Shown: positions 2 to 47,310 of the stretch, piece by piece
Layout of the letters: each line of letters starts with the position of its first letter
Numbering within the stretch: position 1 is the stretch's first letter
Virus record (IMG/VR): IMGVR_UViG_3300030376_003596
Location: 1-56,944 of that record
Length of the DNA: 56,944 nt
Strand: one strand, 5' to 3'
From: a virus
Taxonomy: Duplodnaviria; Caudoviricetes
Position numbers and translations under genes: made by a program
The notes under the pieces: generated by a model
Seen by the model: only the letters and a program-made list of their open reading frames with translations
What the model was told of the DNA's origin: nothing
Database searches by the model: none

Positions 2-1087
2 GTTAAGATATCCAAGAACACCATTACCACCATAGACTACATGGACTTGGGTGGATACGTTTGGAAAGACCATGTTATAAATAGAAACTTTACACAGTGC
101 AGTGTAATCAACTGCGACTTCAAACAATTTGTTAGCAATATATGTAAGCAAGACTCAAGTCGTGCCACATCCATGGAGTCTACACTTGGATACATGATGC
201 ATGGATATAAGAACTTAAGTTACTGTCCTGCTATCATCTTAAATGATGAGGTAATATCAGAGAACCCTGAAGGTGGCACAGGCAAGGGATTGTTTATGAA
301 TGCCATGCAGAAGATGAAGAAGGTGGTAGTGATTGATGGTAAGTCGTTTGCATTTGAAAAGAGTTTTGCGTACCAACTTGTATCGGCAGACACGCAGATA
401 CTTTGCTTTGATGATGTGAAGAAACACTTTGACTTTGAGAGATTGTTCTCGGTTGTAACTGAGGGACTGACACTTGAGAAGAAGAACAAGGACGCTATCA
501 AGATACCATTCTCTAAGTCCCCTAAGATTGCCATCACTACGAACTATGCAATCAAGGGTGCAGGTAATTCATTTGCAAGGAGGAAGTGGGAGTTGGAGTT
601 ACACCAACACTATTCAAAACATTACACTCCTCTTGATGAGTTTGGTAAGTTAATGTTTGGGGATTGGGATGAGGAAGAGTGGTGTGTTTTCGACAACTAC
701 ATGATAGGTTGTTTACAACTTTACTTAGATAAAGGATTAGTTAAAAGTGACTTTGTTAATCTAAAGATTAGACAGTTGTCAGCAGAGACTTGCCATGATT
801 TTATTGAGTGGTGTGGTTTAGTTGATGGGCAACCTGGAAACAATTCATTACGAGACAATGAGAAGTTATATAAGCAGGAGTTGTACTTTGATTTCATATC
901 CGAGAATCCTGACTATGGACCAAAGGCTAAGATGACTATCAGTAGAACAACCTTCTATAGATGGTTAAAGTCTTATGCATTATATAAGTATCAAGTAAGT
1001 CCGAGGGAGGGTAGAGATAGTAATGGAAGATGGATAGTCTTTCAGAGAGTACAAGACGTAGAACAAACTTCAAGCCTTCCGATATGA
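2..1087 (+). CDS. Primase-helicase, C-terminal P-loop NTPase part (continuation of 55615..56944)
   Basis: Frame open from position 2 (VKISKNTITTIDYMDLGGY...); Walker A GGTGKG, Walker B ILCFDD and ITTNY motif typical of SF3-like primase-associated helicases. Confidence 0.85.
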   Translation, partial: VKISKNTITTIDYMDLGGYVWKDHVINRNFTQCSVINCDFKQFVSNICKQDSSRATSMESTLGYMMHGYKNLSYCPAIILNDEVISENPEGGTGKGLFMNAMQKMKKVVVIDGKSFAFEKSFAYQLVSADTQILCFDDVKKHFDFERLFSVVTEGLTLEKKNKDAIKIPFSKSPKIAITTNYAIKGAGNSFARRKWELELHQHYSKHYTPLDEFGKLMFGDWDEEEWCVFDNYMIGCLQLYLDKGLVKSDFVNLKIRQLSAETCHDFIEWCGLVDGQPGNNSLRDNEKLYKQELYFDFISENPDYGPKAKMTISRTTFYRWLKSYALYKYQVSPREGRDSNGRWIVFQRVQDVEQTSSLPI

Positions 1088-2313
1088 TAGAGTATAGAGA
1101 TTATCAATTAGCAATTATAGAGTTAGGAACATCTATAATCCAAGTCCATGGCTTCTTGTATCTTGCGATGGAGGTAAGGACAGGTAAGACGCTAACAAGT
1201 CTAGGTATTTGTGAACAACTGAATGTGGAAAATGTATTGTTCTTAACCAAGAAGAAAGCGATCAGTTCTATAACTTCAGACTTTGATATGATGTGTCCTG
1301 CTAACTTTGTATTATTTACAATCAACTACGAGAGTATGCATAAGCTACCCGATGTTAAGTGGGATGTAATAATATGTGATGAGGCACACAGTCTTGGTGC
1401 ATTTGCTAAGCCAAACAATAGAGCAAAAGCTGTGAAGGCTTTGATCCAAAAACACAGGAGTCGTGTCATCCTGATGTCGGGAACGCCTACACCTGAGTCA
1501 TACTCACAGATGTATCACCAGGTGTATGGTATTCCTAACAATCCATTCAAGGAATACAAAAACTTTTATAAGTTTGCTCATGACTATGTGAAAGTAACAC
1601 AACGCAGAATCAACGCATTGCTCATTAACGACTACTCTAATGGACTTAAAACAATTTTAGATAGGATGAGTCCATATACTATCCGTTTCTCTCAGGAGAA
1701 CGCAGGATTTAAAGTCAAGACTACCGAGAAAGTTTTAGAGGTAGAGATGGAGGAGGACACATATAAGATTGCCAAGCGATTACAAAAGGATTTGGTAGTG
1801 GAAGGGAAGGAGCAGATAATACTTGCCGACACCCCTGTAAAGTTGATGATGAAACTGCATCAGATATTCTCAGGGACTGTGAAGTTTGAGTCCGGTCATT
1901 CCATGGTCATGGACTTTAGCAAGGCTGAGTTTATTAAGAAGCATTTCAAAGGACAGAAGATTGGAATCTTCTATAAGTTCAAGGCAGAACTTGCTGCACT
2001 TAAACAAGTGTTTGAGGATGGATTAACCACAGAGTTGGAGGAGTTTAACACCACTGATAAATGTATTGCATTACAAATTGTAAGTGGACGAGAGGGAATC
2101 TCTTTGAAGAAAGCACAAGCACTTGTATATTATAACATTGACTTTAGTGCCACCTCGTATTGGCAGAGCAGAGATAGGATGACCACCAAAGATAGGCTAC
2201 ACAACGATGTGTATTGGGTTTTTGCTAGGGGTGGTATTGAGAGACAGATATATAAAGCAGTAACCAAGAAGAAAGATTATACTATTAACCATTTTAAAAA
2301 AGATTTCAAATGA
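1084..2313 (+). CDS. SF2 (SNF2/DEAH-like) helicase
   Basis: Motifs EVRTGKT, ICDEAH, SGTP, REGISL, QSRDR; ATG 1084 overlaps upstream stop. Confidence 0.85.
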   Translation: MIEYRDYQLAIIELGTSIIQVHGFLYLAMEVRTGKTLTSLGICEQLNVENVLFLTKKKAISSITSDFDMMCPANFVLFTINYESMHKLPDVKWDVIICDEAHSLGAFAKPNNRAKAVKALIQKHRSRVILMSGTPTPESYSQMYHQVYGIPNNPFKEYKNFYKFAHDYVKVTQRRINALLINDYSNGLKTILDRMSPYTIRFSQENAGFKVKTTEKVLEVEMEEDTYKIAKRLQKDLVVEGKEQIILADTPVKLMMKLHQIFSGTVKFESGHSMVMDFSKAEFIKKHFKGQKIGIFYKFKAELAALKQVFEDGLTTELEEFNTTDKCIALQIVSGREGISLKKAQALVYYNIDFSATSYWQSRDRMTTKDRLHNDVYWVFARGGIERQIYKAVTKKKDYTINHFKKDFK

Positions 2314-2538: not shown

Positions 2539-2730
2539 ATGAAAAAAGTAGGTAGCTTAGAAATAACAAGATATAACTATGAACTAATAGATGGTGAACC
2601 CAAGATTGTAATCTCCATGGTAAAAGTTTTAGACCAGGAAGGGGGGTACATTAAGTTCGCTAAACTAAAAGATGTTGAACCATACCTATCTTTGTATACT
2701 GTTAACTTTAAAAATAAAAAAAATGATTAA
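2539..2730 (+). CDS. Hypothetical protein
   Basis: A-rich start context, co-oriented in operon. Confidence 0.6.
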   Translation: MKKVGSLEITRYNYELIDGEPKIVISMVKVLDQEGGYIKFAKLKDVEPYLSLYTVNFKNKKND

Positions 2731-3040
2731 AGAAAATTTCACAAGTGCTAAGGAGCTGAGTAAAACTATAGGAACTCACAGCTATAAAGAAATAATGAAA
2801 GCAGCTAACGCTCTTGAAGGAAAGTATGGACACCCTATACAAAGAAGACAGCTAGGAATAAAGCACCCTTGGATTGGTATTGTTGAGGGTAAAAACAATA
2901 AGAGTATAGACACAATGTTTCATAACGACTTCATTGTTAACATATTAAAATGCTTAAATGGTATTGAACTAGATGTTACAAAAAAACCATACAGTAAAGA
3001 GGCAAAGCTAGAAGATGACCGAGCAACAAATCCAATCTAA
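2723..3040 (+). CDS. Hypothetical protein
   Basis: ATG 2723 after A-run, overlapping upstream stop. Confidence 0.55.
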   Translation: MIKENFTSAKELSKTIGTHSYKEIMKAANALEGKYGHPIQRRQLGIKHPWIGIVEGKNNKSIDTMFHNDFIVNILKCLNGIELDVTKKPYSKEAKLEDDRATNPI

Positions 3041-3257
3041 ACGAATCAAACAACTTGAAGCTGAAGGATACTACGTTATTAAGTTAGTCAAGACTAACAA
3101 GAATGGAATACCTGATCTCGTTGCCATACCAAAGGACAGCGAGGTCTTATTCAGTGAAGTGAAGACACCCAAAGGGAAGGTGTCTAAGTTACAGGAGTAT
3201 AGATTAAAAGAACTAAAAGACCATGGATGCAGAACAGAAATATATAGAGGAGGATGA
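3015..3257 (+). CDS. VRR-NUC domain endonuclease (resolvase-like)
   Basis: TEQQIQ...GIPDL...EVKTPKGKVSKLQ, the PD-(D/E)XK VRR-NUC signature. Confidence 0.85.
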   Translation: MTEQQIQSKRIKQLEAEGYYVIKLVKTNKNGIPDLVAIPKDSEVLFSEVKTPKGKVSKLQEYRLKELKDHGCRTEIYRGG

Positions 3258-3576
3258 TGGGCACTTCGAGATTGATGAGAGATTCTTAGATGACATGAAA
3301 CTTATTGGATTGGATTACTCAATAGAGATAGCAGGTCTGATAGACTTGAACGCTTACTTCCTCCCTGAGAAAGACCGAAAGGTTCAGAAGGTAGGTGGTG
3401 TAGTTAAGTTTGAAGAGCCATTGTTTTTTGAAATAGAATATTATAAACCTGTGGAGGGGATACCAATCTACATATCCATGAAGGAGATTGATGTAGATGA
3501 TTACTTAGATTACATAAACTTAAATCAAATTTTTAAACATGAGAACATACAAGATAACGCACACCAAACTAATTGA
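3223..3576 (+). CDS. Hypothetical acidic protein
   Basis: Tightly packed ORF in operon. Confidence 0.6.
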   Translation: MDAEQKYIEEDDGHFEIDERFLDDMKLIGLDYSIEIAGLIDLNAYFLPEKDRKVQKVGGVVKFEEPLFFEIEYYKPVEGIPIYISMKEIDVDDYLDYINLNQIFKHENIQDNAHQTN

Positions 3577-3826
3577 AAGTGAATACGATACTTCAAAGAA
3601 GGTATACGATACCACCCACTACACCATTGTTCATGCCGAGAATAAGGAGCAGGCTATTGAAAAGGTTAAGCCTGAGATAGTGTTACACATAGAAGATAGA
3701 GGATCAAAGAAAGAAGATATATTTAATGAGTGGTGGGAAACCTGGAGTAATAAAGCAAAGAAACACAAGGAAGATATCCTATATGAGATAAGAAAAATTA
3801 AATCTCCTTCGCAAAATAAAAAATAA
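3539..3826 (+). CDS. Hypothetical protein
   Basis: Tightly packed ORF with TTTTAAAC-ATG start context. Confidence 0.6.
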   Translation: MRTYKITHTKLIESEYDTSKKVYDTTHYTIVHAENKEQAIEKVKPEIVLHIEDRGSKKEDIFNEWWETWSNKAKKHKEDILYEIRKIKSPSQNKK

Positions 3827-3875
3827 TTACTATATTTATAGCCTCATATGTTTTAAATAGCGGTTTATCCGATAG

Positions 3876-3903
3876 AAGGGATGGTAAGTCATCCCTTTTT
3901 TTT
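3876..3903 (+). terminator. Rho-independent terminator
   Basis: AAGGGATG-gtaagt-CATCCCTT hairpin followed by T-run. Confidence 0.8.
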
Positions 3904-3919
3904 ATGCCTATAATTTTTC

Positions 3920-4273
3920 TTTACCCATCATGCAAATAATTTACCCATTGTTTGGGGATAATTTATGTCTTGCCCCTAAATGGGCAGGCTGAAACCCTTA
4001 TAAACACTAACCATGTTATAGTCTTGCCCCTAAATGGGCAAAGTTTGGAGTGGTTTGGAGTGGTGTTGAGTCCAAACTATTTCTGTGTTCAGATTCTTAA
4101 ACAAAATTGTTCAGATTCTTGGACACGATACCGTATCTTTTTGGGTACGACACCGTATCTTTTTATCATTAGGGGGAAATAAAAGTTGGGAAAGTTGGGA
4201 ACAGTTGGGAAAAACCCAAACTTTTTATAATAAAAGTTTGATTTGTTTGATGTAGTTTGATTAAAATCAAACT
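3920..4273. repeat. Intergenic mosaic array of seven short repeat families
   Basis: TTTACCCAT x2; GTCTTGCCCCTAAATGGGCA x2; GTTTGGAGTG x2 plus inverted TCCAAACT; TGTTCAGATTCTT x2; ACGAYACCGTATCTTTTT x2; AGTTGGGA x3 plus CCCAAACT; GTTTGAT x3 plus inverted ATCAAAC. Confidence 0.9.
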
Positions 4274-4304
4274 ATTTGCTATTGTAACCTATCTTTTTAT
4301 TTAG

Positions 4305-4312
4305 TATATTTG
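4305..4312 (+). promoter_or_regulatory. Bacteroidetes-type -7 promoter box
   Basis: TATATTTG (TAnnTTTG) with upstream TTG, 10 nt before ATG 4322. Confidence 0.65.
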
Positions 4313-4321
4313 TGTACACTC

Positions 4322-4513
4322 ATGAATACAAGTGCGGTAGAACGGGAACGCTTAAATCATATTAACATTATGATGAAGGGTCTGCACGAAAAGAATAATC
4401 AAATTTACGAACACTTAATAGACCGGGAATACGAGCAACTAAAGTCTGTCCTCAAGGAACAGATTGGTGAGCTGAAAGTTTTATTAGATTCGTTAGAAGA
4501 TGAAATCAATTAG
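4322..4513 (+). CDS. Hypothetical helical protein
   Basis: ATG after promoter; overlaps next gene. Confidence 0.6.
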   Translation: MNTSAVERERLNHINIMMKGLHEKNNQIYEHLIDREYEQLKSVLKEQIGELKVLLDSLEDEIN

Positions 4514-5210
4514 ACCAAGACTCCAAGGAAAAAGATTGGAGGCTTTTAAAAACCTAAACAAAAAAGAGAGAAGGATTCTAGTGATAGGAGACTTACACGC
4601 ACCCTTCATCCAGGATGGGTACTTTGAATTTTGTAAATACATTTATAATATTTATAATTGTAATCACGTAATATTCATAGGAGATATTATAGACAACCAC
4701 TATGCCTCATTTCATTCAACCGACCCGAATGGGATGAGTGGTGGTGATGAACTTAGTGCAGCCATCAAGGTGTTAAAGCCATGGAAAGAAACCTTTAAGA
4801 AGGCAGATGTAATAGTGGGCAACCATGATCGCATGATAATGAGGAAGGCTTTCTCATCTGCTATACCTAAGCAGTGGATCAAATCTTATAACGATGTGCT
4901 TGGAACTAAATGGAATTGGAAAGATAGAATAGTATATGACAAGGTGCAGTATGTACATGGAGAAGGAGGGACAGCTAGGACTCGTGCCAAGAACGATATG
5001 TTTTCCACGTGCCAGGGCCATATACATACCCAGGCCTACGTGGATTGGACCTGTGGCACAAATGAAAAAATATTTGGAATGCAGGTAGGATGTGGTCTCG
5101 ATAGAACCTCATATGCCGCTGCTTATGCCAAGAACTTTAAGAAGCAGGCGATAGGAGTTGGGGTTGTAATAGGTGGTCACACTGCAATAAATTGTATGAT
5201 GGACGTATGA
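4500..5210 (+). CDS. Calcineurin-like metallophosphoesterase
   Basis: GDLH, GDIID, GNHD, HG and GHIH motifs. Confidence 0.9.
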   Translation: MKSIRPRLQGKRLEAFKNLNKKERRILVIGDLHAPFIQDGYFEFCKYIYNIYNCNHVIFIGDIIDNHYASFHSTDPNGMSGGDELSAAIKVLKPWKETFKKADVIVGNHDRMIMRKAFSSAIPKQWIKSYNDVLGTKWNWKDRIVYDKVQYVHGEGGTARTRAKNDMFSTCQGHIHTQAYVDWTCGTNEKIFGMQVGCGLDRTSYAAAYAKNFKKQAIGVGVVIGGHTAINCMMDV

Positions 5211-5620
5211 GGTTTGAAACCAAAGATGATATTGAAAGAGAACGCAAAGCCATTAAAGTTTATGTAAAACTTTTTGGTGGGTCATTTGAAAAACTTGGAG
5301 AACATGATATTGATTATAAGGTATTTAATAAGGATGGAGAACTTAAAGGCTACGTTGAAGTCAAGGGACGCAATAGAAAAATAAGCAAAGCCTTTCCTCT
5401 ACCTGTAGCTGCTCGTAAGTTAGTTAAACTAGCAGACAAAAGATTCAATCCTATAATGCTATGGGCGTGTGAGGATGGAATCATTTACTCTCCTGTTGAA
5501 AACCTGAAGGGAGATATACGATGGGGAGGTAGACCTATCCGGGATGGAGCACCCAATGACAATGAACTCATGGCATACTTTCCCTTTACAAAAAAATTTA
5601 GATACGTTAGGTTTCGTTAA
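5207..5620 (+). CDS. Putative PD-(D/E)XK nuclease-like protein
   Basis: IDY...VEVKGR motif; ATGA overlap. Confidence 0.55.
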   Translation: MRFETKDDIERERKAIKVYVKLFGGSFEKLGEHDIDYKVFNKDGELKGYVEVKGRNRKISKAFPLPVAARKLVKLADKRFNPIMLWACEDGIIYSPVENLKGDIRWGGRPIRDGAPNDNELMAYFPFTKKFRYVRFR

Positions 5621-5623: not shown

Positions 5624-8600
5624 TTATCTCTCCTCTCTTTCTTCTCTCTCTTTTCTTTCTTCTCTCTCGTCTGTTCTCTCTGTTCTCTCTTCTCTCTCTC
5701 CTTTTTTAATTTTATTATATTCTTTATACACTTCTTTTTGAGCAGCCTTATTAACATCCTTAAAGAAAGGCATTAAGTTTAACATACCTAAGGCTTGTAA
5801 CCCTATTAGCACACGCTGAGGATTTACATCTACCTTTGTAAAATATAAATCAACCTCTCCTATTTTTTTCTTTTCACTTACCTCTTTACCCCATTCTTGA
5901 ATTATTTTTCCTGTTATTTTAGCCATAACAGAATATGGTCCTGTTAACTTAGTAATCTGTTGATAAGGGTCTCTACCTTGTACCTTTTCCTTTTCTGTAG
6001 GTTTAGTATATGGAGAAAATCCTATGGCATCTTTGTAAGGATCATACTCTCCCTCTCTTAAAGACTGTCCATACTTTTCATTAAAGTATTCAGTACCCAC
6101 ATAAGGATTATTAATTATACCCCTTACTACTTGTCCATAAGACCTACCAAATAATAAAGTATTAACTGTAGATACTGCTCCTTGAGCAATTTGTTTTTCT
6201 ATATCTTTTTCTTCTTCCTCATCCTCGATGTCAAAGCCAAACATCTCTCTCATCAAGTCGGCATATATATTACTTAACACTCCTACAAAAGAACTATATA
6301 ATATCATTCGTGTAGTTGTCGCTGCTAATAGTTGCCCTGCTTTTATTCTTGATATTTCTCCTCCTCTTAGCAAAACATCGACAGCAAGTCTAGTATTTTC
6401 ATACTCTACAAGTAAGAACCTCAACATAAACCTATCCACATTTTTATATATCTTTTTACCAAGATTATCATCTTGGCGTTTAACATTTTTAAGAATACCC
6501 ATGAAAGGATTATCTGTTGCACCACTGAAGAAGGAATCTCTATCAGCTATTTTAGTAGCCTCTTGTAGTGCCTCCTTGTTAGCATTCATATACGCCTCAT
6601 CATTTTGTTCTATTTTCTTAAAGTCTATATCTTTACCTGTAAGTTTTTTAAATTCCCTAGCAAGTGTACCATACCATAAAGGTCTCATTACTGCTTTATC
6701 AGGAGCACTAATCATTGTATCCGCTAGTATTTCTAGTCCCTTTCTAGGTGCAGAAAGGAAAATTGATATTTGTTTAGCTCTATTACCTACTTCTGTTCTT
6801 ACCTTTTTATTTCTTACCCCCATGTTTGATTGGATAAGTCCTGGCTCTATCATTCTTCCCGTTAATGGGTCACCATATAAACGCTGTTGTTGTTTAGAGT
6901 TTAACCTTCTTATTATGGTTGCTTGATCTACACTACTTAAATCTTTTGTAACTATTTTAAGACCCTTCTTAAATCCTAAAGGATTTATTACGGCAGCATT
7001 AAGTAAGTTTACACTTGTTTCTAATCCCATTCTTGGAACACCTGCTAACATACTACGATAACCTGTCTTTGCTAGGTATGTAAAAATTTCATCTCCAACA
7101 CTTGAGTTATTAAGTCCTCGTCCAACAACATCCTCAACTACCTGCTTGTATGCCATCTCCACACCATCAAATATTTCTCTAACCTCTCTGCTTTCACCCT
7201 TCAAGTCTTCCTTCATTTTAGTTAGGGTCATGTTGGTTTCTCTAATCACAGGAGTCATGTGGTAATCAAGTAGTGTCATTCTAGCACCTCGTTTCGTTGC
7301 ACCAAACGGATCAAAGTTTAATGCTCTTGATCCTGTTTCACGACTCTCTATGGTTTTAGCTTTAGTAGAAACACTTGTTCCTCTTATATAATCATTGAAC
7401 TCTTTATTGTCCTCTTTGTAAGGATTGTCTGACTGTTGTGTCCAATGGTGGATATAGTTTACAATAGGTTTTATTATTTGCCCTTGTATAACTCCTGCAG
7501 TATACTCTGCTTTTTCTGTTAACCCTGTATTAACTTCGTCAATAACTTTTATAGCATTTCTTTCTGCTCTATTTAAACTTTTGTATATCGTCTTCGCCTC
7601 AATCTCTCCATCAGCATTACTATACTTTTTTAGTACCTCCTCTAACATCTTTGCCTCTCGCTGATCTGACAACTCACTTTTACCTTTATAAAATTCAATA
7701 GTATCTTTTAGATAAGATGCCGCAGAATAAACCTCTCCCTTTCTTCCAGGATTGGATTCGAACTCTCGTTGTAAAAGATAAGTCATAAGAACAGTCTGTG
7801 ATTTTTTTATACTGTTCGGATTATACTTATACTTCCACATGATTTTGTTTAATGCCTCATCAAGTTTTTTATCTACAAGAGCTTGATCGGTTTCCTGATT
7901 GCTGTAAGCCTTTGCACTACCCTCAAATATGTTTTCAAAAATAGGTTTGCCTTTACGGTTTCCTAGTACAAGGTCAATGTAATTAAGTGAGCCTGTAGAT
8001 ATAAGTTGGTATACATTGTTTTTTCTTTTGCTAGTTTTACCACTTAATGACTTATTAATAGTTGCTCTAATTTTTTTAGCACTTACAATGGAACTAAAAG
8101 GTTTTGAAGTTTTAACTGCCTTGTTGGTCACCTTGCTTTTGTTAGCTGCATTAATTTTGTACACCATAACTTGTGCTAAGTGTGGAAGCCATCCATTATT
8201 AATGTTGTCGATAACTTGTTGCAATCTTTTTAAATCTAAATTATCTAGTTCTTTAATACCATCAGACTTAATTAAATTATTTAATGTCTTGGCAAGTTTT
8301 CTTTCGTCTCTTGTGGTTAGCTTCTCGCTATTTATTTCACTGTCTTTAATCTCTTCTTCTAGGATTTCTTTTTCAATTCGTTGTTCCTCTTCTTTTAACG
8401 CAATCTCTTCTTTAGTTTTAGGAGCAGGTGGTGGAAGTATTTCTTTCTTATACTTCATCATTTCCTCTCCTTGCTTTTGACTGATAACTTTTTGTTCAAC
8501 CAATTTGTCAACAGTCTTTTTATAATTTAAAGTACCATCCTCGTTTTTAACATTGGTATCCAATATATTATCCTCAATCAACATGGCATAGGCAGGTATT

Positions 8601-11600
8601 CTAGAAGTTTCTTTTTCTATTTCTTCTAGTATTTTATCTACTGTTTTTTCTACGCTGCTTATTTCATCCAAGGATAGAACTGATTTCTTCTCACCAATTT
8701 TACTTACCAAGTTAGTATACTCATTTAATACTGAGTCAGGAATAAGAGATGCTTCTACAGCAAACAACCTTTCCATTTGTCGAGTAACTACCTTTGGTAT
8801 ACCAAGTTTACCTCGGTTAATATTCTTGAGTGCATTCTCTCTTCTTTTGTTTAGAGCTGACCTTCTAACTTTTTTCTCAGCCTTGTTAAGTTGCTCGTCT
8901 ACATATACCATTACATCCATCACTGCGTCCATGTTTAGGACTCCTTCTTTAGTAAATAAGTTAGCATTATTTATTTTAGATGTAATATTTTTAAGAGTGG
9001 CAGGACTTAGAGATGCTTTCCTTCCTTTAGTTATTTGTTTTATTTCTGCCTGTATTTCTTTTCTAATAGAGTCAACTGCTCTTTTTACATTCTTAGTTTC
9101 CCTGGCAATCGCTCGTAACTTTTCTTTTAGTGCGGTGTTAACTTGTATTGTTATTTTCTTTGGCTTAGGTTTACCAATTATCTTGGCTGCACTTGGTGCT
9201 TTCTTTACTTTAAATATCCTTTCAATAACAGACTTGCTTACACCCTTGGATTCAAGTGCTGTCTTGATGGCACTATCACTGTACCCTCTAGACTTAGCTT
9301 TCGATACAAATGAATTTATTTTATTAGTGTCACCTAACTGTCTTTTGATACTTGCTTGTTCAGGATCAAATGTTACATTACTTCCGTCTGCTAATTTTGC
9401 TTGGTTAGGTTCAAAGGCAACAATCTCTAATCCATTATCAAAATCTATTCCGTCAAAACCATCTGTTAAAAGAGATTTTTTAAAGTCTTTGTTTGCTTTT
9501 CTTAAAGAAGCAGGCGAAGTATATTTTCTTGAACCATCAGAAGCCCAATTTAAAAGGTCGTTCCATTCTTCATTTGTTGCTTTATATGGATTTTTAATAT
9601 TTAAAAAGAATGCTCTTGACTCGGTAAGTTTGTTTTCCATATAAGGATTCTGAAGTCCTCCTATAAAAGCATATTGGTCTGCGGATGCTTTGTTAGAGGC
9701 AAAAAAGAATCCTGCTTGTGCTATTTCAGTATTAGTCAAAGAGCCAAGTTTCTTTTTGTCAAACACATCAAAATCTGCTGCACTGCCATGATACACTACC
9801 ATAGGCTCACCATTCTCATCAACAATTTTACTTGCATTCTCAGGGTCAGTCTCCCAATTACCAAACCATTTCTTAAATGCAGGGGTTCGAACTAACTTGT
9901 ATTGCTCAGGGTTTAGATTACTTGGTTGACCATTAGGTGCTAACTGTCTTTTGATTTCAGCCACTTTAGGAAGAGAACCTGCAGATGATGTTACGTTAGA
10001 TGCTACAAAACCTTTATCTGTTTTACGAGATACCTTAGTCTCGTTAGTATTATATTTAGTGTAAGTCTCTGTTAAGTCATATGATTTATAAAACTTATTA
10101 GGCTGATAAATTTTTTCAATCTTAGCTTTTACCACCCATCCAAAAGAAGGATGGTGGTCTACATCATTTGGATTTGTTTTAGCCACCTCAAATGTAGTAG
10201 GATCAAATTGAACAAAGGTCATTATCTCTCCACCTACTACCCCTTTATTTAATGGGTCCATTATTCTTTGATGGAACTGTCCTAAGTTTTTAATACCTAT
10301 AGCTTTTTGAAACTTCTTATTAGCCGCTATCTTTTGGTTTAATCTTTTTCTTAAATCAGGAGATAAGTTGTTTTCAATATTTAAAAGTTTAACTAATTCT
10401 TTAGGGTTGTTTAAAAAGTCATTTAAGTTTTTTGTATTTTTTAATTTAGGAAGGTTGCTGCCTTCTTTTGATTGCTCTTCATTATATTTTCTAATAAACT
10501 TTCTAAGAGGCTCAATTATTTTTGTAGGCTTTACAGGAGATTCTTCAACTCTCTGTTTATCTTTATTTAAATAGTATCCTTTATTATTAAAACTTTTTAG
10601 ATTCTTTTTATACTTCTTTAGTTCTGACTCTAATGCTTTAGGAGTTCTAACAAGCCCTTGATTAAATGCATTTATTAATTCTTTATTACTTAATATGTTT
10701 TCATCCAAAACTAGATTTACTAACTCCTCAAAAATGTGTTGTTGAAATTGCCAGGACCCATCTAATGTTCCTGAATGTGGAGCAAACAAATTAGCCTTCC
10801 CTTCAATAGCATTTCTTATAAACCCTTCGGCTTGTGATTTAGTATTAAAGGCTGCAAGATTAGAAACATCTCCTAGTTTTTTATTTAACTTATCCATTAT
10901 TATAGGAACATAATTCCTACCACCTAGTAAATTTATTTTATATCCATTACCTAAATCCGTTACACCTGCATTAGTGTAATCATACATATTAGTAACAAAA
11001 TTTTTACCATTAAAATCTTTTACTGCTAAAGGATCAACTAATCTTCTAATCCAACTTCTCGAATCTTCTTGAGGATTAGGAGCATCGATTACTTCTTCTT
11101 TTGCTCTCTTTAATTTTATTGTACCTACCTCGCCTGACTCTCCTTGTTCTTCTTGTTCTAATAATTCTTCTTGTTCTTTAGTATTTAAATCAGCCTCAGT
11201 TATTACCTCACCCTTCGATACTTTAGTAGCTAGGTTGTTCATTAGTCTAACCATAGCTGCGTTATCTTTAGTGAAGTCCCCTTGGTATTGTTTAAGGTTC
11301 AATAGGGCAGCTAACTTTTCAAGAAGTCTTTTAAAAATATTCTTTGATCTTACATCTAATGTATCATAATTAGTAGCAAGGTCTCCGAATATCTCGGCAA
11401 GTTTCTCCTCGTTATGTTGACCTGTGTCTTCGTATTGGGATATGTACTCCTCCAACTTAGCCTCCATCTCTGAGCCTTTCTTAGATGCTTTCTTTAAACC
11501 ATCTAACATCTCTTTAGAGAATGCTTGAACAAGAGATTCTTTACCAAAGGCATTATATAAAAGAGCATGAAATGCCTCATGATTTACAGTGTTTCCTTTA

Positions 11601-14600
11601 GTACCTGAAGCAGCATTTAATAAGTTAATGTGTATGGTGTTTGTATTAGGATCATAAGCACCCCTCTCTCCTGCACTAGTTCCAGGAACTGATGCCTTAT
11701 ATTCTTGTGGAGTAGCGTGTAATATTATCTTAATGTCAGGAGCAATTTCTTTTAAAGATTTTGCTACGTTCTCAGCTTGTTGTATTATCTTTTTTACCAC
11801 ACGAGATAAAGGTCTATTCGTAGGGTTATTTACAGTAACCGTTTCTGTAGTAACAATTTTCTTTTGTGGTTTAGTAGTCTGCTTCTCTCCTACAACCTCA
11901 TCAAACAAAGTATCTAATTCACTTTGTTCTTTGCTCTTACTATCTTTCTTATCTTGGAGTTTCTCTCCGGTAAGTTCTTTAGACTTTGTTGTGGATTCTC
12001 TTGTCTCCATCTTCGATGCATCTCGGGTTTGTTGAGTCGCATCCACTTCTCCTGGGCTTTGCTTTTGAACGGCATCTTTTTTTGTTTTATCTTTTATAAC
12101 TTCTTCTGTAGTAGTAATCTCCTGAGTCACTTCTTCTAACACCTCATCTAACACCGCCTCTTCTACTGCACCTATTTCATTTTCTCTTTTGATTATAGCT
12201 TCATCCAATGCATAGTTTGCATCTTCTACTACCATAGTGTTTCCACTCTTATCTTTTAAAGTAACACTTTCAGGGTTACCATCAGCATCATAGTTTATTT
12301 CAGGATTACCCATGTCCTCATTTACTAAAGTAGTAGCACCGGATAAGTATTCTATAACATACATATCCTTGCCATCTGCTCTTGTTTCTTTTCTAAGAAC
12401 ACCTTGATCTCCCTCTTGTTTATAACCTTTACCTGTGAATCTAACCTTTAGTCCTTCTGCTTTGGGGACACTTGTGGTTTTGATATTTTGGTTTTTAGTC
12501 TTTCTTCCAACTTTTCTAGCACCTTTAACTGTTGTCTTTTTGGTAGTTGTGCCAACTTTAGTTTCTGTTTCAAATTCATAACCTTCTAGTTTTCTTATTT
12601 CACTTTCTATTTTTTCTTTGATACGTCCTTTAGCTTCTTGACTAATGTCTGTTCTTTCATCTAGTTCTATTAAGTCATCATACAATTCGTCAGCAGCTTC
12701 AGAGATTTCTTTTTCATTAATAAGTTCTGCGTTATTCATTCGAGTATCAAGACTATCAAGTCTTTGGTTTTTCTCTACTACATTAACACCCTCTCTCTTT
12801 GGTTCATAAGTCTGTATCTCTTCATTAAACCTTACAGTATCAGACATAAACTTACTAGCCATCTCTTGCTCTTCTTCTGTCAACGACTCAACACCTTCCT
12901 TATTTATTTTATCAGAAATATATAATACAGTTTCCTCACTTACTTCTCCTGTATCTTTAAATTGTTGATACCTTGAACCGAAGGGAGCTTCTCCTTTAGC
13001 TATGTTCTCTACTGCTTTAATATTTCTTCTAAATGGTATTCCCATACCCGATGCCATGTTGTCTCCTGATCCTTCAACTACTTGATAACTAAATCTATTT
13101 GAGACACCATCTATATCATTTATCTCTTTAATCTTTTTGTTTAACATATCAGCAAGTTCAACATCGTTGCTTACATATAAACCACTCATTACTACATCCT
13201 CTTGTGTTTTAAGGTTGTTGATTTTTTCAATCATTTTTTCCCTTGTAACAGTAGATGCGTTAACGTGCATATTATTACCTCCCTTTATAGTCTTGGTTTT
13301 TTCATCATATACACTGCCTTCAGATGGAGTATATACCACATAATCCCCACTCTTTTGTTGAGCCAGTTTGTCAACATCCCCTATCTCTTTTAACCGAGTA
13401 TCAATAGCCTCTATTTGCTTTTTAATATTTTGTGAAAGGGATGGGTCTTTGTTTTCTATCTCTTCTTGTAATTCTTTTTTCTGTAACAATAAACCAAGTG
13501 ATTCCTTTTGTTGTCCAATACCTAAGTGCGTTGGTATCTCATTAGTAGTTTGTGATACTTGTTCAAATATTTCTAAATCTTTTTTAGCTTGTTTGGCTGT
13601 AAGTTTACCATTTAAAACATCGACTTGAAGTCTTTCTTTTATCAAGTCCATAGCCTTAGTATTATTTTTAGAAAACTGAAACAGTGCCCACTGTTCATCA
13701 GTCAACTCACTAAAGTCATATTTTTGTTCTGCTATATTTTCAACACCAAATGCTTTTCTTACTCCACCCTCTACTTTAAGTCTGACTCCTGGACCGACTT
13801 TTGTTTTACGAACTATGTTGGATACTCTTCCCACATTGTCTACTATAGCACCTCCAATTGCTCCTGCAAGAGCCGCCTCTCCAACTTGTTTTGCTCCTTC
13901 CATTACGGTTTCAGGAGTTTGAAATGCTTCTATATCATTAGCATTATTGAAAGCAATTTGCCCAAGTTGATCTACTAATTCTTGAGCTGCCTCCGTTTCT
14001 GCTTCTGCTAAAGCGGAAGCAAATGCTGTTGCTCCATATCTTTTTATACCATTATTTATTTCAGTTCGTAGTATTTCATTAAAAGTTTTAGTAGATGTTC
14101 TTTTACTACTTACTCCCAATGCCTTACTTAATATGTTTTTAAACATAGGAGACTTGCTCGTTACATTTCTAAAACCAAAACTTTCTAATAAACCAATGGC
14201 AGCCATCATTGGATATTTAAATTTATCTTTTTCTTCTTCACTTAGTTTATCAAATGCAGGGTCTTCGCTCATTTGCCTATCAATATGTTCATATGATTGA
14301 GCAGTAAATGCAGCCACGCCAATAGCAGGGTTAATTAAACTAAGTGCCATAGCCGGAGCACTACCTAATACACCAAAGAATCCTTGAGCTAAAATGCTAT
14401 CCTCTTGCATTTTATCTATGTAAGATTGTTTAGTAGGGCTATGCATAAGTGCATCAAGAACCACATTATCTCTCATCGTACTTAATACTCCTTTGTCTAC
14501 TTCTTTATCCACACCTGTAGCAGCTTGTGAAAATTGATTTACATCTTTAGGGTTTATAATCAATCCCTCTCCATACTTTTGTTTTTTTCTTTGAGCGTCA

Positions 14601-16588
14601 CTATATCCCGCATTAATTGCATACATATCAAGAACAACACCTGTTGCACCTATAGCCATAGCATTAGTTTCTTTAAGAACATGATTCCAGGTAGCACCTG
14701 CAAAATTACCTGTAGGTAAATTTTCAAACATATATAATTCTCCTGCCGCTCTATCTAATGTTGACCCCATAGCAGCATACTCTCCTCTTAACCACTCCCA
14801 TCTTTTCATTTCTCCATCTACCCTATCCCACTCTTCTTTAACTTGATTTCTAAGGGTCTCGTAGTTAGGATCATTTTTATCCATCCTTTTTAGAATTGCT
14901 AGGTTTTGTTCTAGCTTAGCTTTATTTTCTTGCACAGTAGCCGTAGTCTTTTCAAAACTTTTAGTAAGATTATTAAACTTTCTTAACTCTACGTCTAATG
15001 CTTCTTTAGTGTTAAATCTTTTCTTTGTAAATTCTTCTCGTGCATTTCCTCTTTTAGGACGATGCCTCATTAAAAAGTTTTTTAACTTTGTGGCTTCTTC
15101 TGCATCACTGCTTATAGTATCTAAATCTATTTCTTCACTAAACTTAGTTCGGCTACCTGTAATTGGGTCTAACTTATAAACAATCATTGCATCACCCCCA
15201 TCTACACCAAGTAAGCCGTCATCTTCTACAAATTCAAAATCATATTCACCGAATATTTCATTCATTTGTTTTACAACAGTTTCTTCTATAGATCCCATTG
15301 GAGCGTCCTCACCATCAATAAGTTTTTCTGTTATGAATGTATTTACATTATCTCTAAATCCATCTACATTTTCTCCCCAAATATTTTCTTTTTCAATTTC
15401 TCCATCAGACCATATGTTTGCAGCACCATATCTATCATCCTCTATCTTTCCTTTGGATGCTAAATCAGCTCGATAATCCTGCCATTGTTTATTAGTCCAT
15501 TGGCTAGAGTCTACATCTTTTAATTCAGGATTTTTATTTATAAAATTTTCGTATACTTGATATGTTTCGGCATCAACTATTGATTTATTATTCTTAATAT
15601 AATTTGGGTTTACATCATATGGTAAATTTTCTGCACCTTGATTTCTTAAAATACTTGGTCTTCTACCTGCACCTTTGCCTCCTGTTTCTTTGTAAGATTT
15701 ACCACGATTCATTTCATCAAATCGTTGAGCAATCTCTTGACCACTTTTGTCTTTATATATATCCCTAGCTAATTCTGAAACACCACTATATCCAAATGTT
15801 TGGTCATCAAGTTTTTTCTTACCACCCGTAAAATCATAATACTTTTCTGCCTCTGTCTTTGGTTTTTCTTCGGGAAGTGCGTACCTATTTTGGGTATATA
15901 TATATTCTTCAATATAGTCAGCCTTATCGTTTTCTCCCTTTTGTCTAAGTTTATCTGCTTCTTCTATATACTTTTTTTCTAACTCAGTAAGCTCTTCTTT
16001 ACCAACCCTATTTATTTCTTTCTCTATTTTTTTAGCCTCCTCTTTTTTCCCTTCTTCTCTTAGCTTCTTAGCCTTTTTATACTTTTCTTGTATCGAAGCA
16101 TCCAATTTACCACCTCCATCCTGTGGTTTATCTTCAGCGTAAAACTCTTGAAGTTTTTTATTAGACTCAGATTCTCCATCAGCGGGAGATTGAAAATAAA
16201 ACTCAGCTTCTTTAGCCTTAAAATACTCTTGGTATTTTGCGTCTTCTTCTTTAGTGGGACTTGTATCAAAAAGAATCTCTCCTCCCACAAATACATCCCT
16301 AGGGTCACTTTCTTGTGAATCCGAAGAACCATCTGCCGAAACAGATTCCGTATCTTGTTGTGGTTGGTCTTTTTTTTTTACAGCAACTTCGGTTTCTTTA
16401 CCACCTACACCCATTAAAGATTTAAAATCATTTAATCCTTTATTATATCCTGTAGATTTAAAATGTGAATAGGTATCATTAAGTGCATTTTCATTTGTGT
16501 TAATCAATGTAACATAATCTTCATAACTTCCATTGTATCCTGTACTAACAAAATAATTGTACCCATCTTTTATTGCTTCCTCGTTCAT
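5624..16588 (-). CDS. Giant (3654 aa) polyvalent virion/ejection protein with zincin metallopeptidase and ADP-ribosyltransferase domains
   Basis: GAYDP..TIHIN..HEAFH..EEKLAE (HEAFH at 11567-11581); VRTPAFKKWFG..VDENGEPMVVYHG..GFFF..LNIKNP..GFDG..VAFEPNQ (ART-PolyVal-like, ~9350-9940); last gene of the virion module. Confidence 0.8.
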   Translation of the reverse strand: MNEEAIKDGYNYFVSTGYNGSYEDYVTLINTNENALNDTYSHFKSTGYNKGLNDFKSLMGVGGKETEVAVKKKDQPQQDTESVSADGSSDSQESDPRDVFVGGEILFDTSPTKEEDAKYQEYFKAKEAEFYFQSPADGESESNKKLQEFYAEDKPQDGGGKLDASIQEKYKKAKKLREEGKKEEAKKIEKEINRVGKEELTELEKKYIEEADKLRQKGENDKADYIEEYIYTQNRYALPEEKPKTEAEKYYDFTGGKKKLDDQTFGYSGVSELARDIYKDKSGQEIAQRFDEMNRGKSYKETGGKGAGRRPSILRNQGAENLPYDVNPNYIKNNKSIVDAETYQVYENFINKNPELKDVDSSQWTNKQWQDYRADLASKGKIEDDRYGAANIWSDGEIEKENIWGENVDGFRDNVNTFITEKLIDGEDAPMGSIEETVVKQMNEIFGEYDFEFVEDDGLLGVDGGDAMIVYKLDPITGSRTKFSEEIDLDTISSDAEEATKLKNFLMRHRPKRGNAREEFTKKRFNTKEALDVELRKFNNLTKSFEKTTATVQENKAKLEQNLAILKRMDKNDPNYETLRNQVKEEWDRVDGEMKRWEWLRGEYAAMGSTLDRAAGELYMFENLPTGNFAGATWNHVLKETNAMAIGATGVVLDMYAINAGYSDAQRKKQKYGEGLIINPKDVNQFSQAATGVDKEVDKGVLSTMRDNVVLDALMHSPTKQSYIDKMQEDSILAQGFFGVLGSAPAMALSLINPAIGVAAFTAQSYEHIDRQMSEDPAFDKLSEEEKDKFKYPMMAAIGLLESFGFRNVTSKSPMFKNILSKALGVSSKRTSTKTFNEILRTEINNGIKRYGATAFASALAEAETEAAQELVDQLGQIAFNNANDIEAFQTPETVMEGAKQVGEAALAGAIGGAIVDNVGRVSNIVRKTKVGPGVRLKVEGGVRKAFGVENIAEQKYDFSELTDEQWALFQFSKNNTKAMDLIKERLQVDVLNGKLTAKQAKKDLEIFEQVSQTTNEIPTHLGIGQQKESLGLLLQKKELQEEIENKDPSLSQNIKKQIEAIDTRLKEIGDVDKLAQQKSGDYVVYTPSEGSVYDEKTKTIKGGNNMHVNASTVTREKMIEKINNLKTQEDVVMSGLYVSNDVELADMLNKKIKEINDIDGVSNRFSYQVVEGSGDNMASGMGIPFRRNIKAVENIAKGEAPFGSRYQQFKDTGEVSEETVLYISDKINKEGVESLTEEEQEMASKFMSDTVRFNEEIQTYEPKREGVNVVEKNQRLDSLDTRMNNAELINEKEISEAADELYDDLIELDERTDISQEAKGRIKEKIESEIRKLEGYEFETETKVGTTTKKTTVKGARKVGRKTKNQNIKTTSVPKAEGLKVRFTGKGYKQEGDQGVLRKETRADGKDMYVIEYLSGATTLVNEDMGNPEINYDADGNPESVTLKDKSGNTMVVEDANYALDEAIIKRENEIGAVEEAVLDEVLEEVTQEITTTEEVIKDKTKKDAVQKQSPGEVDATQQTRDASKMETRESTTKSKELTGEKLQDKKDSKSKEQSELDTLFDEVVGEKQTTKPQKKIVTTETVTVNNPTNRPLSRVVKKIIQQAENVAKSLKEIAPDIKIILHATPQEYKASVPGTSAGERGAYDPNTNTIHINLLNAASGTKGNTVNHEAFHALLYNAFGKESLVQAFSKEMLDGLKKASKKGSEMEAKLEEYISQYEDTGQHNEEKLAEIFGDLATNYDTLDVRSKNIFKRLLEKLAALLNLKQYQGDFTKDNAAMVRLMNNLATKVSKGEVITEADLNTKEQEELLEQEEQGESGEVGTIKLKRAKEEVIDAPNPQEDSRSWIRRLVDPLAVKDFNGKNFVTNMYDYTNAGVTDLGNGYKINLLGGRNYVPIIMDKLNKKLGDVSNLAAFNTKSQAEGFIRNAIEGKANLFAPHSGTLDGSWQFQQHIFEELVNLVLDENILSNKELINAFNQGLVRTPKALESELKKYKKNLKSFNNKGYYLNKDKQRVEESPVKPTKIIEPLRKFIRKYNEEQSKEGSNLPKLKNTKNLNDFLNNPKELVKLLNIENNLSPDLRKRLNQKIAANKKFQKAIGIKNLGQFHQRIMDPLNKGVVGGEIMTFVQFDPTTFEVAKTNPNDVDHHPSFGWVVKAKIEKIYQPNKFYKSYDLTETYTKYNTNETKVSRKTDKGFVASNVTSSAGSLPKVAEIKRQLAPNGQPSNLNPEQYKLVRTPAFKKWFGNWETDPENASKIVDENGEPMVVYHGSAADFDVFDKKKLGSLTNTEIAQAGFFFASNKASADQYAFIGGLQNPYMENKLTESRAFFLNIKNPYKATNEEWNDLLNWASDGSRKYTSPASLRKANKDFKKSLLTDGFDGIDFDNGLEIVAFEPNQAKLADGSNVTFDPEQASIKRQLGDTNKINSFVSKAKSRGYSDSAIKTALESKGVSKSVIERIFKVKKAPSAAKIIGKPKPKKITIQVNTALKEKLRAIARETKNVKRAVDSIRKEIQAEIKQITKGRKASLSPATLKNITSKINNANLFTKEGVLNMDAVMDVMVYVDEQLNKAEKKVRRSALNKRRENALKNINRGKLGIPKVVTRQMERLFAVEASLIPDSVLNEYTNLVSKIGEKKSVLSLDEISSVEKTVDKILEEIEKETSRIPAYAMLIEDNILDTNVKNEDGTLNYKKTVDKLVEQKVISQKQGEEMMKYKKEILPPPAPKTKEEIALKEEEQRIEKEILEEEIKDSEINSEKLTTRDERKLAKTLNNLIKSDGIKELDNLDLKRLQQVIDNINNGWLPHLAQVMVYKINAANKSKVTNKAVKTSKPFSSIVSAKKIRATINKSLSGKTSKRKNNVYQLISTGSLNYIDLVLGNRKGKPIFENIFEGSAKAYSNQETDQALVDKKLDEALNKIMWKYKYNPNSIKKSQTVLMTYLLQREFESNPGRKGEVYSAASYLKDTIEFYKGKSELSDQREAKMLEEVLKKYSNADGEIEAKTIYKSLNRAERNAIKVIDEVNTGLTEKAEYTAGVIQGQIIKPIVNYIHHWTQQSDNPYKEDNKEFNDYIRGTSVSTKAKTIESRETGSRALNFDPFGATKRGARMTLLDYHMTPVIRETNMTLTKMKEDLKGESREVREIFDGVEMAYKQVVEDVVGRGLNNSSVGDEIFTYLAKTGYRSMLAGVPRMGLETSVNLLNAAVINPLGFKKGLKIVTKDLSSVDQATIIRRLNSKQQQRLYGDPLTGRMIEPGLIQSNMGVRNKKVRTEVGNRAKQISIFLSAPRKGLEILADTMISAPDKAVMRPLWYGTLAREFKKLTGKDIDFKKIEQNDEAYMNANKEALQEATKIADRDSFFSGATDNPFMGILKNVKRQDDNLGKKIYKNVDRFMLRFLLVEYENTRLAVDVLLRGGEISRIKAGQLLAATTTRMILYSSFVGVLSNIYADLMREMFGFDIEDEEEEKDIEKQIAQGAVSTVNTLLFGRSYGQVVRGIINNPYVGTEYFNEKYGQSLREGEYDPYKDAIGFSPYTKPTEKEKVQGRDPYQQITKLTGPYSVMAKITGKIIQEWGKEVSEKKKIGEVDLYFTKVDVNPQRVLIGLQALGMLNLMPFFKDVNKAAQKEVYKEYNKIKKGEREERTERTDEREERKEREEREER
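9334..9955 (-). repeat. Perfect 16-bp direct repeats flanking the ART domain
   Basis: CTAACTGTCTTTTGAT at 9334-9349 and 9940-9955, 606 nt apart (in frame; both encode IKRQL). Confidence 0.9.
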
Positions 16589-36915: not shown

Positions 36916-37183
36916 TTGTTTCACTTAATATTTTTTCAACTTGTTTAATAAAGAAGTCTCTTTCTTCAAGACGTATCATTGCAATCTCCTTTATAAAGTT
37001 TTCTCTTTCCCTATGACACTGACTAAGGAAATGTTCCCTTTCTTTATGCCATACTTCTCTTTCTCTTGTAGACCTTTCAGATATCTCTTCAATCTTTCTG
37101 AGTAACCAACGCTCACGAGTAATGGCATACAGAACCCATATGCCTAATACTCCATACTGTGTTAATATCTCAAACGTATCCAT
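36860..37183 (-). CDS. Holin-like membrane protein
   Basis: N-terminal TM (QYGVLGIWVLYAI) followed by charged coiled coil. Confidence 0.5.
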   Translation of the reverse strand: MDTFEILTQYGVLGIWVLYAITRERWLLRKIEEISERSTREREVWHKEREHFLSQCHRERENFIKEIAMIRLEERDFFIKQVEKILSETNGIKSTQTKNNRGRKKSS

Positions 37184-46775: not shown

Positions 46776-46849
46776 AGTCGTAGTATTATAATAACAAAGA
46801 TACAAATTTTTTTTAGATGCTTGGAGGTATTGGGTTATATATAGCATTT

Positions 46850-47278: not shown

Positions 47279-47286
47279 TATATTTG
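47279..47286 (+). promoter_or_regulatory. Early promoter -7 box
   Basis: TATATTTG 25 nt before ATG 47311. Confidence 0.7.
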
Positions 47287-47310
47287 CAATAACAATTTAA
47301 AACAAAACAT

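Follow-up and report, generated by a model that had tools for sequence, protein, structure and literature searches.

What does a stretch of non-coding DNA filled with short, ordered repeats do in a tailed phage, where such DNA is scarce and rarely studied? The question is raised by positions 3906-4300 of the virus record IMGVR_UViG_3300030376_003596 (Duplodnaviria; Caudoviricetes), the full 56,944 bp of which are called the window below. This segment, hereafter the cassette or array, is located inside the replication/recombination module of the genome. Analysis of the window and comparison with its relatives establish the anatomy of the cassette, its insulation from transcription, its accessory status, the in-place origin of its modules and the conservation of its core: it is an accessory, insulated cis-element made in place. 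As to its function, we tentatively propose an auxiliary replication element, a set of iterons and hairpins for the phage primase-helicase, and we put the probability of this reading at roughly 0.35.

Repeated 8-mers cover 62% of 3906-4300, as against 15.4±6.9% in dinucleotide shuffles, none of 1000 of which reached 62%. No other 395-bp segment of the genome is as dense in repeats (next best 0.45, genome mean 0.155), and the cassette falls in the longest gap of the record free of open reading frames (ORFs), 3827-4321, once a contig-end artefact is set aside. The runner-up 395-bp windows, at 32000-32200 and 39300-39600 (0.41-0.45 in repeated 8-mers), lie inside coding regions. Two ORFs that can be drawn through the cassette, 3952-4182 (TTG start) and 4085-4255 (GTG start), were rejected as coding because they span modules with 9-, 10- and 22-bp indels between alleles. 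A 12-codon minus-strand ORF of the spacer was also rejected as a gene, its ATG being lost in the alleles L062 and L067.

The initial annotation had listed seven motifs in this DNA, and inspection of the sequence, a repeat finder and an exact-match scan located all seven where it had placed them (Table 1). It had also taken them for mostly unrelated motif families, and on this point we disagree: the seven reduce to about four paralogous families, duplicating and recombining in place. The first comprises palindromes of the form xxCCC-N5-7-GGGxx (the P family). The second is made of 7-nt cores, GTTKGRW, in two to five copies at 9-10 bp and always with one inverted closing copy, and the third and fourth are two kinds of 22-bp tandem pairs. 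The repeat finder gives 90% complementarity between TTTACCCAT and the right arm of the core palindrome; M1 represents one half-site of the palindromes of the P family, and in most relatives its second copy forms TACCC-ATTCAT-GGGTA. Other alleles add TTCCCATTTGGGGA and TGCCCCAAAATGGGCA, and all the palindromes fit the same general form. The two core palindromic sites are 54 bp apart, or 76 bp in alleles carrying a 22-bp insert. The M5 pair has a paralog, M5′ (ATGATACCATGTC), which is found ahead of the core in most other arrays, M5 and M5′ coexisting in the same arrays. Further downstream, TTAGGGGGAA, which is 90% complementary to TTGCCCCTAA, marks the start of a second, diverged unit, and the array of the window reads as two and a half diverged units.

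The three modules of the window composed of three direct copies plus one inverted copy have one shared architecture, and we refer to them as D-modules. The 12 array records parsed (see below) contain 21 of them, with two to five cores each. All 42 intervals between cores measure 9 bp (20) or 10 bp (22), and the tandem pairs are spaced by 20-22 bp. The cassette is indeed non-coding and its repeats helically phased, as had been claimed for it. The linkers vary while the cores stay constant. Exactly one inverted copy closes every D-module (21/21), 1 or 4 nt past the last core, and in 15 of the 21 it is the reverse complement of the majority core. GTTGGGA and GTTTGGA cores occur mixed inside single D-modules. 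As a single strand the array folds better than its shuffles, with z values of -4.0 for the + strand as RNA, -3.0 for the - strand and -2.4 as DNA.

Table 1. Features of the cassette and of the genes discussed, in positions of the window.
Feature	Position	Strand	Description
Intrinsic terminator	3874..3903	+	11-pair stem 3874-3899, T-run ending 3903; 5′ border of cassette
Leader region	3904..3966	+	conserved leader TGCCTATAATTTTTC, M1 pair, then imperfect ACCC-N7-GGGG palindrome
M1	3920, 3940		TTTACCCAT, 20 bp apart
Conserved core	3967..4040	+	two identical 20-nt palindromic sites (TTGCCC-CTAAAT-GGGCA) around spacer GGCTGAAACCCTTATAAACACTAACCATGTTATAG
M2	3967, 4021		palindrome GTCTTGCCCCTAAATGGGCA
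D-module 1	4041..4078	+	GTTTGGA, GTTTGGA, GTGTTGA, 10-bp spacing; inverted TCCAAAC 1 nt past last core
Motif of D-module 1	4043, 4053		GTTTGGAGTG; inverted TCCAAACT at 4071-4078
M4 pair + M5 pair	4086..4164	+	M5 holds palindrome GATAC-C-GTATC
M4	4086, 4108		TGTTCAGATTCTT, 22-bp tandem pair
M5	4125, 4147		ACGAYACCGTATCTTTTT, 22-bp tandem pair
Start of second unit	4169..4178	+	TTAGGGGGAA, degenerate inverted copy of left arm of core palindrome
D-module 2	4181..4222	+	GTTGGGA x3 at 9-10 bp; inverted CCCAAAC 4 nt later
Motif of D-module 2	4184, 4193, 4203		AGTTGGGA; CCCAAAC at 4215-4221
D-module 3	4232..4273	+	GTTTGAT x3 at 9-10 bp; inverted ATCAAAC 4 nt later; abuts promoter
Motif of D-module 3	4236, 4245, 4255		GTTTGAT; ATCAAAC at 4266-4272
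Promoter-like sequence	4282..4312	+	TTG-N20-TATATTTG, ~10 nt ahead of ATG 4322; 3′ border of cassette
Downstream operon gene 1 (s63)	4322-4513	+	63-aa coiled-coil-looking protein
Downstream operon gene 2	4500-5210	+	metallophosphoesterase
Downstream operon gene 3	5192-5620	+	PDDEXK endonuclease
Primase-helicase	55615-56943 plus 2-1087	+	~800 aa, BT4734-like N-terminal domain + DUF5906
SNF2-type helicase	1030-2313		
VRR-NUC nuclease	3015-3257		resolvase
Small Bac_DnaA_C protein	52968-53276		
Sak annealase	53667-54287		
Exonuclease	54287-55039		
Portal	31990-34425		minus-strand block
Large terminase	34425-36656		minus-strand block
Chaperonin/co-chaperonin genes	44678-46279, 44434-44691, 37183-37746	-	

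The cassette is bordered on both sides by transcription signals. The terminator, the arms of which are at 3876-3883 and 3890-3897, ends the upstream replication operon (from the primase-helicase gene to o95), and in the relatives its hairpin is changed in sequence and retained in shape. On the other side is TTG-N20-TATATTTG. In 10 of the 12 records no second TAnnTTTG box preceded by a TTG was seen within the array or at its edges; our calling this sequence a promoter leans on what we take to be the Bacteroidota consensus. This 3′ promoter aside, no TAnnTTTG box was found on either strand inside the arrays of the 12 records. With a terminator ahead, a promoter behind and no such box within, the cassette sits in a transcription-free pocket. 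Two oligo-dT RNA runs yielded one contig each, both covering 3384-3701 only, although contigs cannot show absence.

The hairpins of the + strand could act as back-up terminators, or be read through into a structured non-coding RNA, so that the cassette would be a cluster of terminators or insulators or the template of such an RNA. Between 3700 and 4450 the + strand carries three terminator-shaped sites, where shuffles give 0.5±0.8, and these are the main terminator, the second copy of M5 and the closer of D-module 2. All modules keep one orientation in all the arrays, the + strand RNA fold has the z of -4.0 given above, and a C-to-T change in the allele L039 would preserve a G-U pair on the + strand only. 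However, the strong terminator stands ahead of the array and not behind it, the conserved core palindromes and most modules are without a T-run, and two to five direct cores phased at 9-10 bp serve no termination role. Besides the lack of an internal promoter box, a search of Rfam gave no match (only sau-63, over the terminator, with E 0.068 and 24 bits for a threshold of 100), and no tRNA or tmRNA was found. We regard a terminator or RNA function as the least probable of those weighed here.

The order primase-helicase, helicase, VRR-NUC, 63-aa gene and phosphoesterase is retained in about 25 IMG/VR loci. Within this group the array is confined to the clade with the o95 gene, and its carriers are the window, the relatives G003 and G002, and ten metagenome loci retrieved by an exact 22-mer from the core, two of which have the G002 allele and two of which are cut by contig ends. 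Twelve array records could be parsed, G002 being represented by the identical copies L066 and L070. They display 11 different module architectures and a single grammar: the terminator, two M1, zero to two M5′, palindrome-spacer-palindrome and one or two D-modules, then an optional block (M4, M5, extra palindromes in some cases, and one or two D-modules), then the promoter. In the relatives M4 and M5 move as a single block, and TTCCCATTTGGGGA palindromes are found at the position of TTAGGGGGAA in the window. In G003 the flanks are 96-100% identical at the amino acid (aa) level, yet the array has four modules only, in another order. The array is missing from three close relatives, namely G001, L059 and a contig of the DNA run X3. 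The exact seven-module allele of the window recurs with zero differences in the DNA run X2, from another study; runs of 14 studies share parts of the stretch, and the cassette comes from marine metagenome and virus records.

Comparing the locus among related phages, as the initial annotation had advised, thus revealed gain and loss of modules, and with 11 architectures in 12 records the locus is not an invariant single origin. Slippage and unequal recombination inside the cassette make it grow, shrink and reshuffle. In L061 the -33 part of the promoter is separated from its -7 part by a second, diverged cassette (~391-590), in which a diverged spacer copy is surrounded by TTCCCATTTGGGGA twice, TACCCGAAATGGGTA and TGCCCCAAAATGGGCA. 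Relatives at a greater distance (58-73% aa identity) have genes where the array would be; eight of these loci were scanned for Bac_DnaA_C, which scored above the Pfam cut-off in five and just below it in two, and gave no match in one. In the loci L003-L031 the very place that o95 and the array take up in the clade of the window, between the VRR-NUC/o117 genes and the 63-aa gene, is filled by a small helix-turn-helix gene of the Bac_DnaA_C type (DnaA domain IV). Another DnaA_C-like gene is retained by the window at 52968-53276.

The core behaves differently from the rest. Its M2a and spacer, 57 nt of which lie outside the search key, match the window at 93-98% identity in each of 10 other arrays. 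In the divergent lineages identity falls to 71-75% over the last 150 nt of o95 and to 77-82% over the first 150 nt of the 63-aa gene. The spacer palindrome TAACAT..ATGTTA has become GAACAT..ATGTTC in L064 and is altered on one arm only in L065. Rearrangements are many and point changes few; the core is strongly conserved, and the periphery reshuffles faster than it mutates. Either the core is under strong selection, or the cassette has spread recently by recombination; in the latter case related phages would seem to pass the cassette among themselves, in the former it would be strongly constrained. Both possibilities fit a useful or a selfish element better than drift.

The cassette is shielded from transcription, contains operator-like palindromes and phased half-sites, and is located in the replication module; together these features argue for a cis-element that works at the DNA level by binding proteins. 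We infer that the cassette acts as DNA, through sequence-specific proteins, and that it is linked to replication; its likeness to published origins of primase-helicase systems, described at the end, leads us to favour an auxiliary origin or a priming/loading element. According to this proposal the cassette, either double-stranded or as transient single-strand hairpins, would bind sequence-specific proteins and would serve as a secondary origin, or as a single-strand initiation or loading site for the primase-helicase. Also in favour of this proposal are the better-than-shuffled folding of the single strands and the C-terminal ‘SRTxFYRWL’ of the primase-helicase, which looks like an Xis/AlpA-type helix-turn-helix, a resemblance judged by eye on an alignment with no profile match behind it. 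It would stimulate replication without being indispensable, the phage also having recombination-dependent functions (Sak annealase, exonuclease and VRR-NUC resolvase), and in such a phage a stimulatory role is possible.

Several observations weigh against an auxiliary replication element, the first of which concern the relatives devoid of the array. In G001, a complete genome (59,105 bp, terminal repeats, CheckV 100%), o95 is directly followed by s63 with no terminator, and no array was found anywhere in the genome. In L059 the terminator is followed by the promoter with nothing between them, and in a 598-nt contig of X3, ~98% identical to the window, position 3912 is joined to 4299. As a complete relative exists without the cassette or similar repeats, an essential origin is excluded. 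Furthermore, D-type modules are absent from all of G001 and from 30 distant-relative loci in spite of similar primase-helicase C-termini, and the cores are therefore not general essential iterons of that enzyme. The primase-helicase gene is 2.8 kb upstream of the array and does not adjoin it, six small genes and the terminator lying between the end of the SNF2-type helicase gene (2313) and the array (3906). The array also has no long AT-only stretch for unwinding, its AT-only runs reaching at most ~15 bp (for instance 4222-4235); by our own count the promoter stretch 4276-4312 is AT-rich. Finally, the GC skew switches at ~47 kb and ~5.6 kb, tracking gene orientation, and if it were a replication skew it would place the origin near 47 kb.

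Nor does any phage protein track the presence or absence of the array among the relatives compared. The genes o63 and o122, the latter at 2723-3040, co-occur with it in G000, G002 and G003 and are absent from G001, but o122 was rejected as a partner since the array-less L059 has it, and the DnaA_C-like protein was rejected likewise, being present in the array-less G001. The predicted model of o122 is all-helical (predicted local distance difference test, pLDDT, 73); it gave no significant match in the PDB (best E 2.2, with weak XRE-type rows only) and none in Pfam, and the Atlas offered nothing usable. An alignment of the primase-helicase C-termini, with the G002 row excluded as a wrong ORF, likewise showed no pattern that tracks array presence.

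The array-less alleles are also what would be expected of a minisatellite-like by-product with little or no function, in which palindromes lodged in a coding- and transcription-free pocket drive slippage and unequal crossing-over, and which persists and spreads by homologous recombination between co-infecting relatives. All three are in close kin, and the X3 junction 3912/4299 is a 4-nt microhomology (ATTT), as would result from deletion of the whole array between ATTT copies. The 11 architectures in 12 records, the two to five copies of the cores, the mixing of GTTGGGA with GTTTGGA, the 22-bp indel between direct repeats and the large excess of rearrangements over point changes all agree with such a process. 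However, phage genomes are compact, yet the cassette fills the longest ORF-free gap of its record, and its core is more conserved than the neighbouring genes. Moreover, a process of this kind accounts poorly for constant cores between variable linkers, for the single closer of 21/21 D-modules, and for the unchanged recurrence of the seven-module allele in X2. On balance we find it rather unlikely that the cassette is such a by-product.

The promoter that abuts the last D-module raises another possibility, that the cassette controls this promoter (4282-4312) from upstream. Its D-modules and palindromes would then be activator or repressor sites, giving the small operon a timing of its own, distinct from that of the replication operon ahead of the terminator. 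A palindrome near the start with phased half-sites further upstream is a typical upstream activator layout, and this is what is seen here: some 54 bp separate the centre of the last palindrome from the presumed start downstream of it, direct half-sites spaced by one helical turn lie further upstream, and in nine of the ten arrays complete at their 3′ end a D-module closer is found a few bases upstream of the -33 TTG. The promoter segment also travels with the array. Nevertheless, the second and third units are 100-350 bp from any promoter-like site, the array-less alleles retain the -7 box and the operon, and L061 ends in palindromes instead of a D-module. The sites are not reused at other promoters, the early region using its own repeated motif TTTTACGnATATTTT, and no regulator co-varies with the array. 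This control function is unlikely in our opinion, although among the alternatives to a replication element it is the one we take most seriously.

Where do the motifs come from? The initial annotation had proposed a collage of captured foreign binding sites, and a search for the motifs elsewhere did not bear this out. No further copy of the longer motifs M1-M6 was found in the 56.9-kb record by exact-match scan, and none in the loci of the relatives. In 185,579 prokaryote species genomes the 17-nt palindrome has 115 scattered single matches in all phyla, where about 140 are expected by our own chance arithmetic, and no locus with two copies was found among these genomes. In IMG/VR it is found only in its own phage family and as three chance matches on unrelated contigs, apparently coding as judged by reading the flanks by eye; the 18-nt M5 is likewise found in its own family and in one coding-looking chance match. 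The array gave no blastn match to plasmids or to cultured phages. A scan allowing mismatches gave 1-10 matches against 0-2 in controls, in four Bacteroidota genomes that had been preselected for an exact match, which makes the comparison biased and uninformative. Since the motifs are no commoner than chance in the genomes and lack any match in plasmids or cultured phages, a foreign capture, whether from the host or from mobile elements, finds no support; this test covers the longer motifs, those of 7-9 nt being too short for it. The D-pattern retrieved 25 loci from IMG/VR, one of which is G003 (L200), and most of the others look like period-9 repeats in long open frames or other tandem repeats. 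One of the loci, L208 (~560-660, minus strand), belongs to a viral contig of 248 kb that is unrelated and richer in GC. Between its genes is a run of GGAGTTGGGA/GGAGTTTGGA in which five direct copies at 11 bp are closed by an inverted TCCAAACT, the same plan as in the D-modules. We found no account in the literature of such arrays in flavobacterial phages.

These searches bear on the idea, a weaker form of that in the initial annotation, that the cassette is a multi-specific sponge, which with increasing genome copy number would titrate the DNA-binding proteins of the host or of competitors (for instance defence regulators, or the repressors and initiators by which other phages operate), and the modules of which would turn over rapidly because the targets change. 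An accessory, fast-changing, transcriptionally shielded array with many different operator-like palindromes is consistent with a conflict element. No phage-encoded partner tracks the array, and arrays with shared modules occur in phages without shared early-region homologs, which argues for host or foreign partners. Repeated decoy sites do alter regulation in a synthetic yeast system (PMC3322331). On the other hand, the longer motifs are not above chance in the 185,579 species genomes, are not found in plasmids or cultured phages and are no more frequent than chance in other IMG/VR families; the modules are paralogs made in place and not captured pieces; and the core is invariant, not diversifying. 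Among the papers ranked highest in a literature search no natural phage precedent was listed, which is a weak negative. We therefore hold a sponge to be improbable, more so than the control region or the by-product.

Other known classes of repeats were tried and rejected. A mini-array or repeat mimic of the clustered regularly interspaced short palindromic repeats (CRISPR) kind does not fit, as the 17-nt repeat is only single-copy in the 185,579 species genomes, the array has no internal promoter box, the repeat is only 20 nt long and the spacer is conserved across phages. In type III antitoxins of the ToxI type, tandem units of ~34-45 nt follow a promoter. Here the periods are 9-10 and 20-22 nt, and no internal promoter box is present. 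An attP site with integrase arm and Xis sites was rejected, since no integrase family was matched by the 59 ORFs compared with PHROGs or by the 3654-aa ORF compared with Pfam; the phage thus has no recognisable integrase among the ORFs scanned, as had been stated at the outset. A pac or cos site was rejected because the terminase and portal genes are ~30 kb from the array.

The genome around the cassette is organised in two blocks. The record is classed as linear, with a CheckV completeness of ~95%. The primase-helicase gene is split by the contig ends, and its two parts match positions 1-439 and 458-791 of PHROG 28855, from which it follows that the record is a circular permutation short of only a few dozen bases. 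The plus-strand genes begin at ~47.3 kb and continue, past the contig ends, as far as 5.6 kb; the 3′ part of this block is the replication/recombination module, which also encodes a DNA methyltransferase and several small ORFs. The three-gene operon 4322..5620 (+) is the context of the cassette and stands outside the cassette itself. The remainder is a minus-strand structural block, which encodes virion proteins in addition to the terminase and portal. Also encoded there are two GroES-like co-chaperonins and a chaperonin of the GroEL type, the latter matched by Pfam Cpn60_TCP1 (E 7e-53) and by PHROG ‘chaperonin groEL’. A polyvalent protein of 3654 aa (5624-16588, minus), with an ART-PolyVal ADP-ribosyltransferase domain at residues 2257-2407, is encoded convergently with the operon preceded by the array, the gene ends being 4 bp apart.

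Between the structural and early blocks, the divergent region 46848-47310 has a C-rich tract at ~46880-47070, with runs such as CCCCTCCCCCC, and four copies of TTTTACGnATATTTT, direct and inverted, which is probably an early operator or promoter motif. The equivalent regions of G001 have a different repeated motif, ATGTCGAT. Nothing homologous to any part of the early region 47311-52700 was seen in G001 and G002, complete relatives that are syntenic in other respects; the region forms a hypervariable early gene block. No close relative was found among cultured phages, and the nearest named phage, Tenacibaculum phage Larrie, matches over the phosphoesterase gene only; for these reasons a marine Bacteroidota host is something we infer.

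Should the cassette prove to be an auxiliary origin or priming site, it would offer a first way into the question of how replication starts in primase-helicase phages of marine Bacteroidota-type hosts, and would show that an origin element can come and go as accessory genes do. A protein sponge would represent a new class of non-coding conflict element, of a counter-defence or competition kind not described for phages. In either case natural array-plus and array-minus alleles with near-identical flanks make its function directly testable once the host is cultured.

How does the proposed auxiliary replication element compare with known ones? Phage P4 has octamer iterons, direct and inverted, plus a second, distant cis region, crr. 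In the Staphylococcus aureus pathogenicity islands (SaPI) the helicase gene is immediately followed by the origin, a row of short iterons (PMC7581432). The putative origin of the staphylococcal cassette chromosome mec (SCCmec) occupies an intergenic region that contains three direct repeats of 5 nt in addition to inverted repeats and to which the Cch2 helicase binds (PMC7581432). The SaPI, SCCmec and P4 origins resemble the array in their short direct (5-8 nt) and inverted repeats, in being non-coding and in belonging to a primase-helicase replication module. Unlike them, the array is not beside the helicase gene, has four site families instead of one, and is hypervariable and absent from close relatives, including the complete G001.

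The sso elements (single-strand origins) of rolling-circle plasmids are dispensable, cassette-like and host-dependent. The RepB′ primase of RSF1010, of the archaeo-eukaryotic type, starts on two 40-nt inverted repeats (PMC8567376). These single-strand initiation sites, ssiA and ssiB, and the sso are orientation-specific hairpin cassettes as is the array, and there they aid priming. Unlike them, however, the hairpins of the array are short (5-bp stems), are mixed with phased direct repeats and are found in a double-stranded tailed phage.

P1 incA and E. coli datA are additional arrays of initiator-binding sites, dispensable for initiation, which exert their effect through titration or handcuffing. 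Whereas these repeat the site of the origin itself, the longer motifs of the array have no matching sites elsewhere in the genome. The origins of lactococcal and streptococcal phages confer ‘Per’ resistance when cloned, the multicopy origin titrating phage replication factors. They are similar to the array in being non-coding, near replication genes and composed of several kinds of direct and inverted repeats, but they are the required origins of the phages themselves, unlike the array. Finally, tandem arrays of decoy transcription-factor sites sequester their factor in a synthetic eukaryotic system with one type of site (PMC3322331), while the array has several site families, which are candidate binding sites only. 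Set beside these systems, the cassette is of the iteron/palindrome kind of cis-element, and it is unusual in being optional, insulated and hypervariable around an invariant core.

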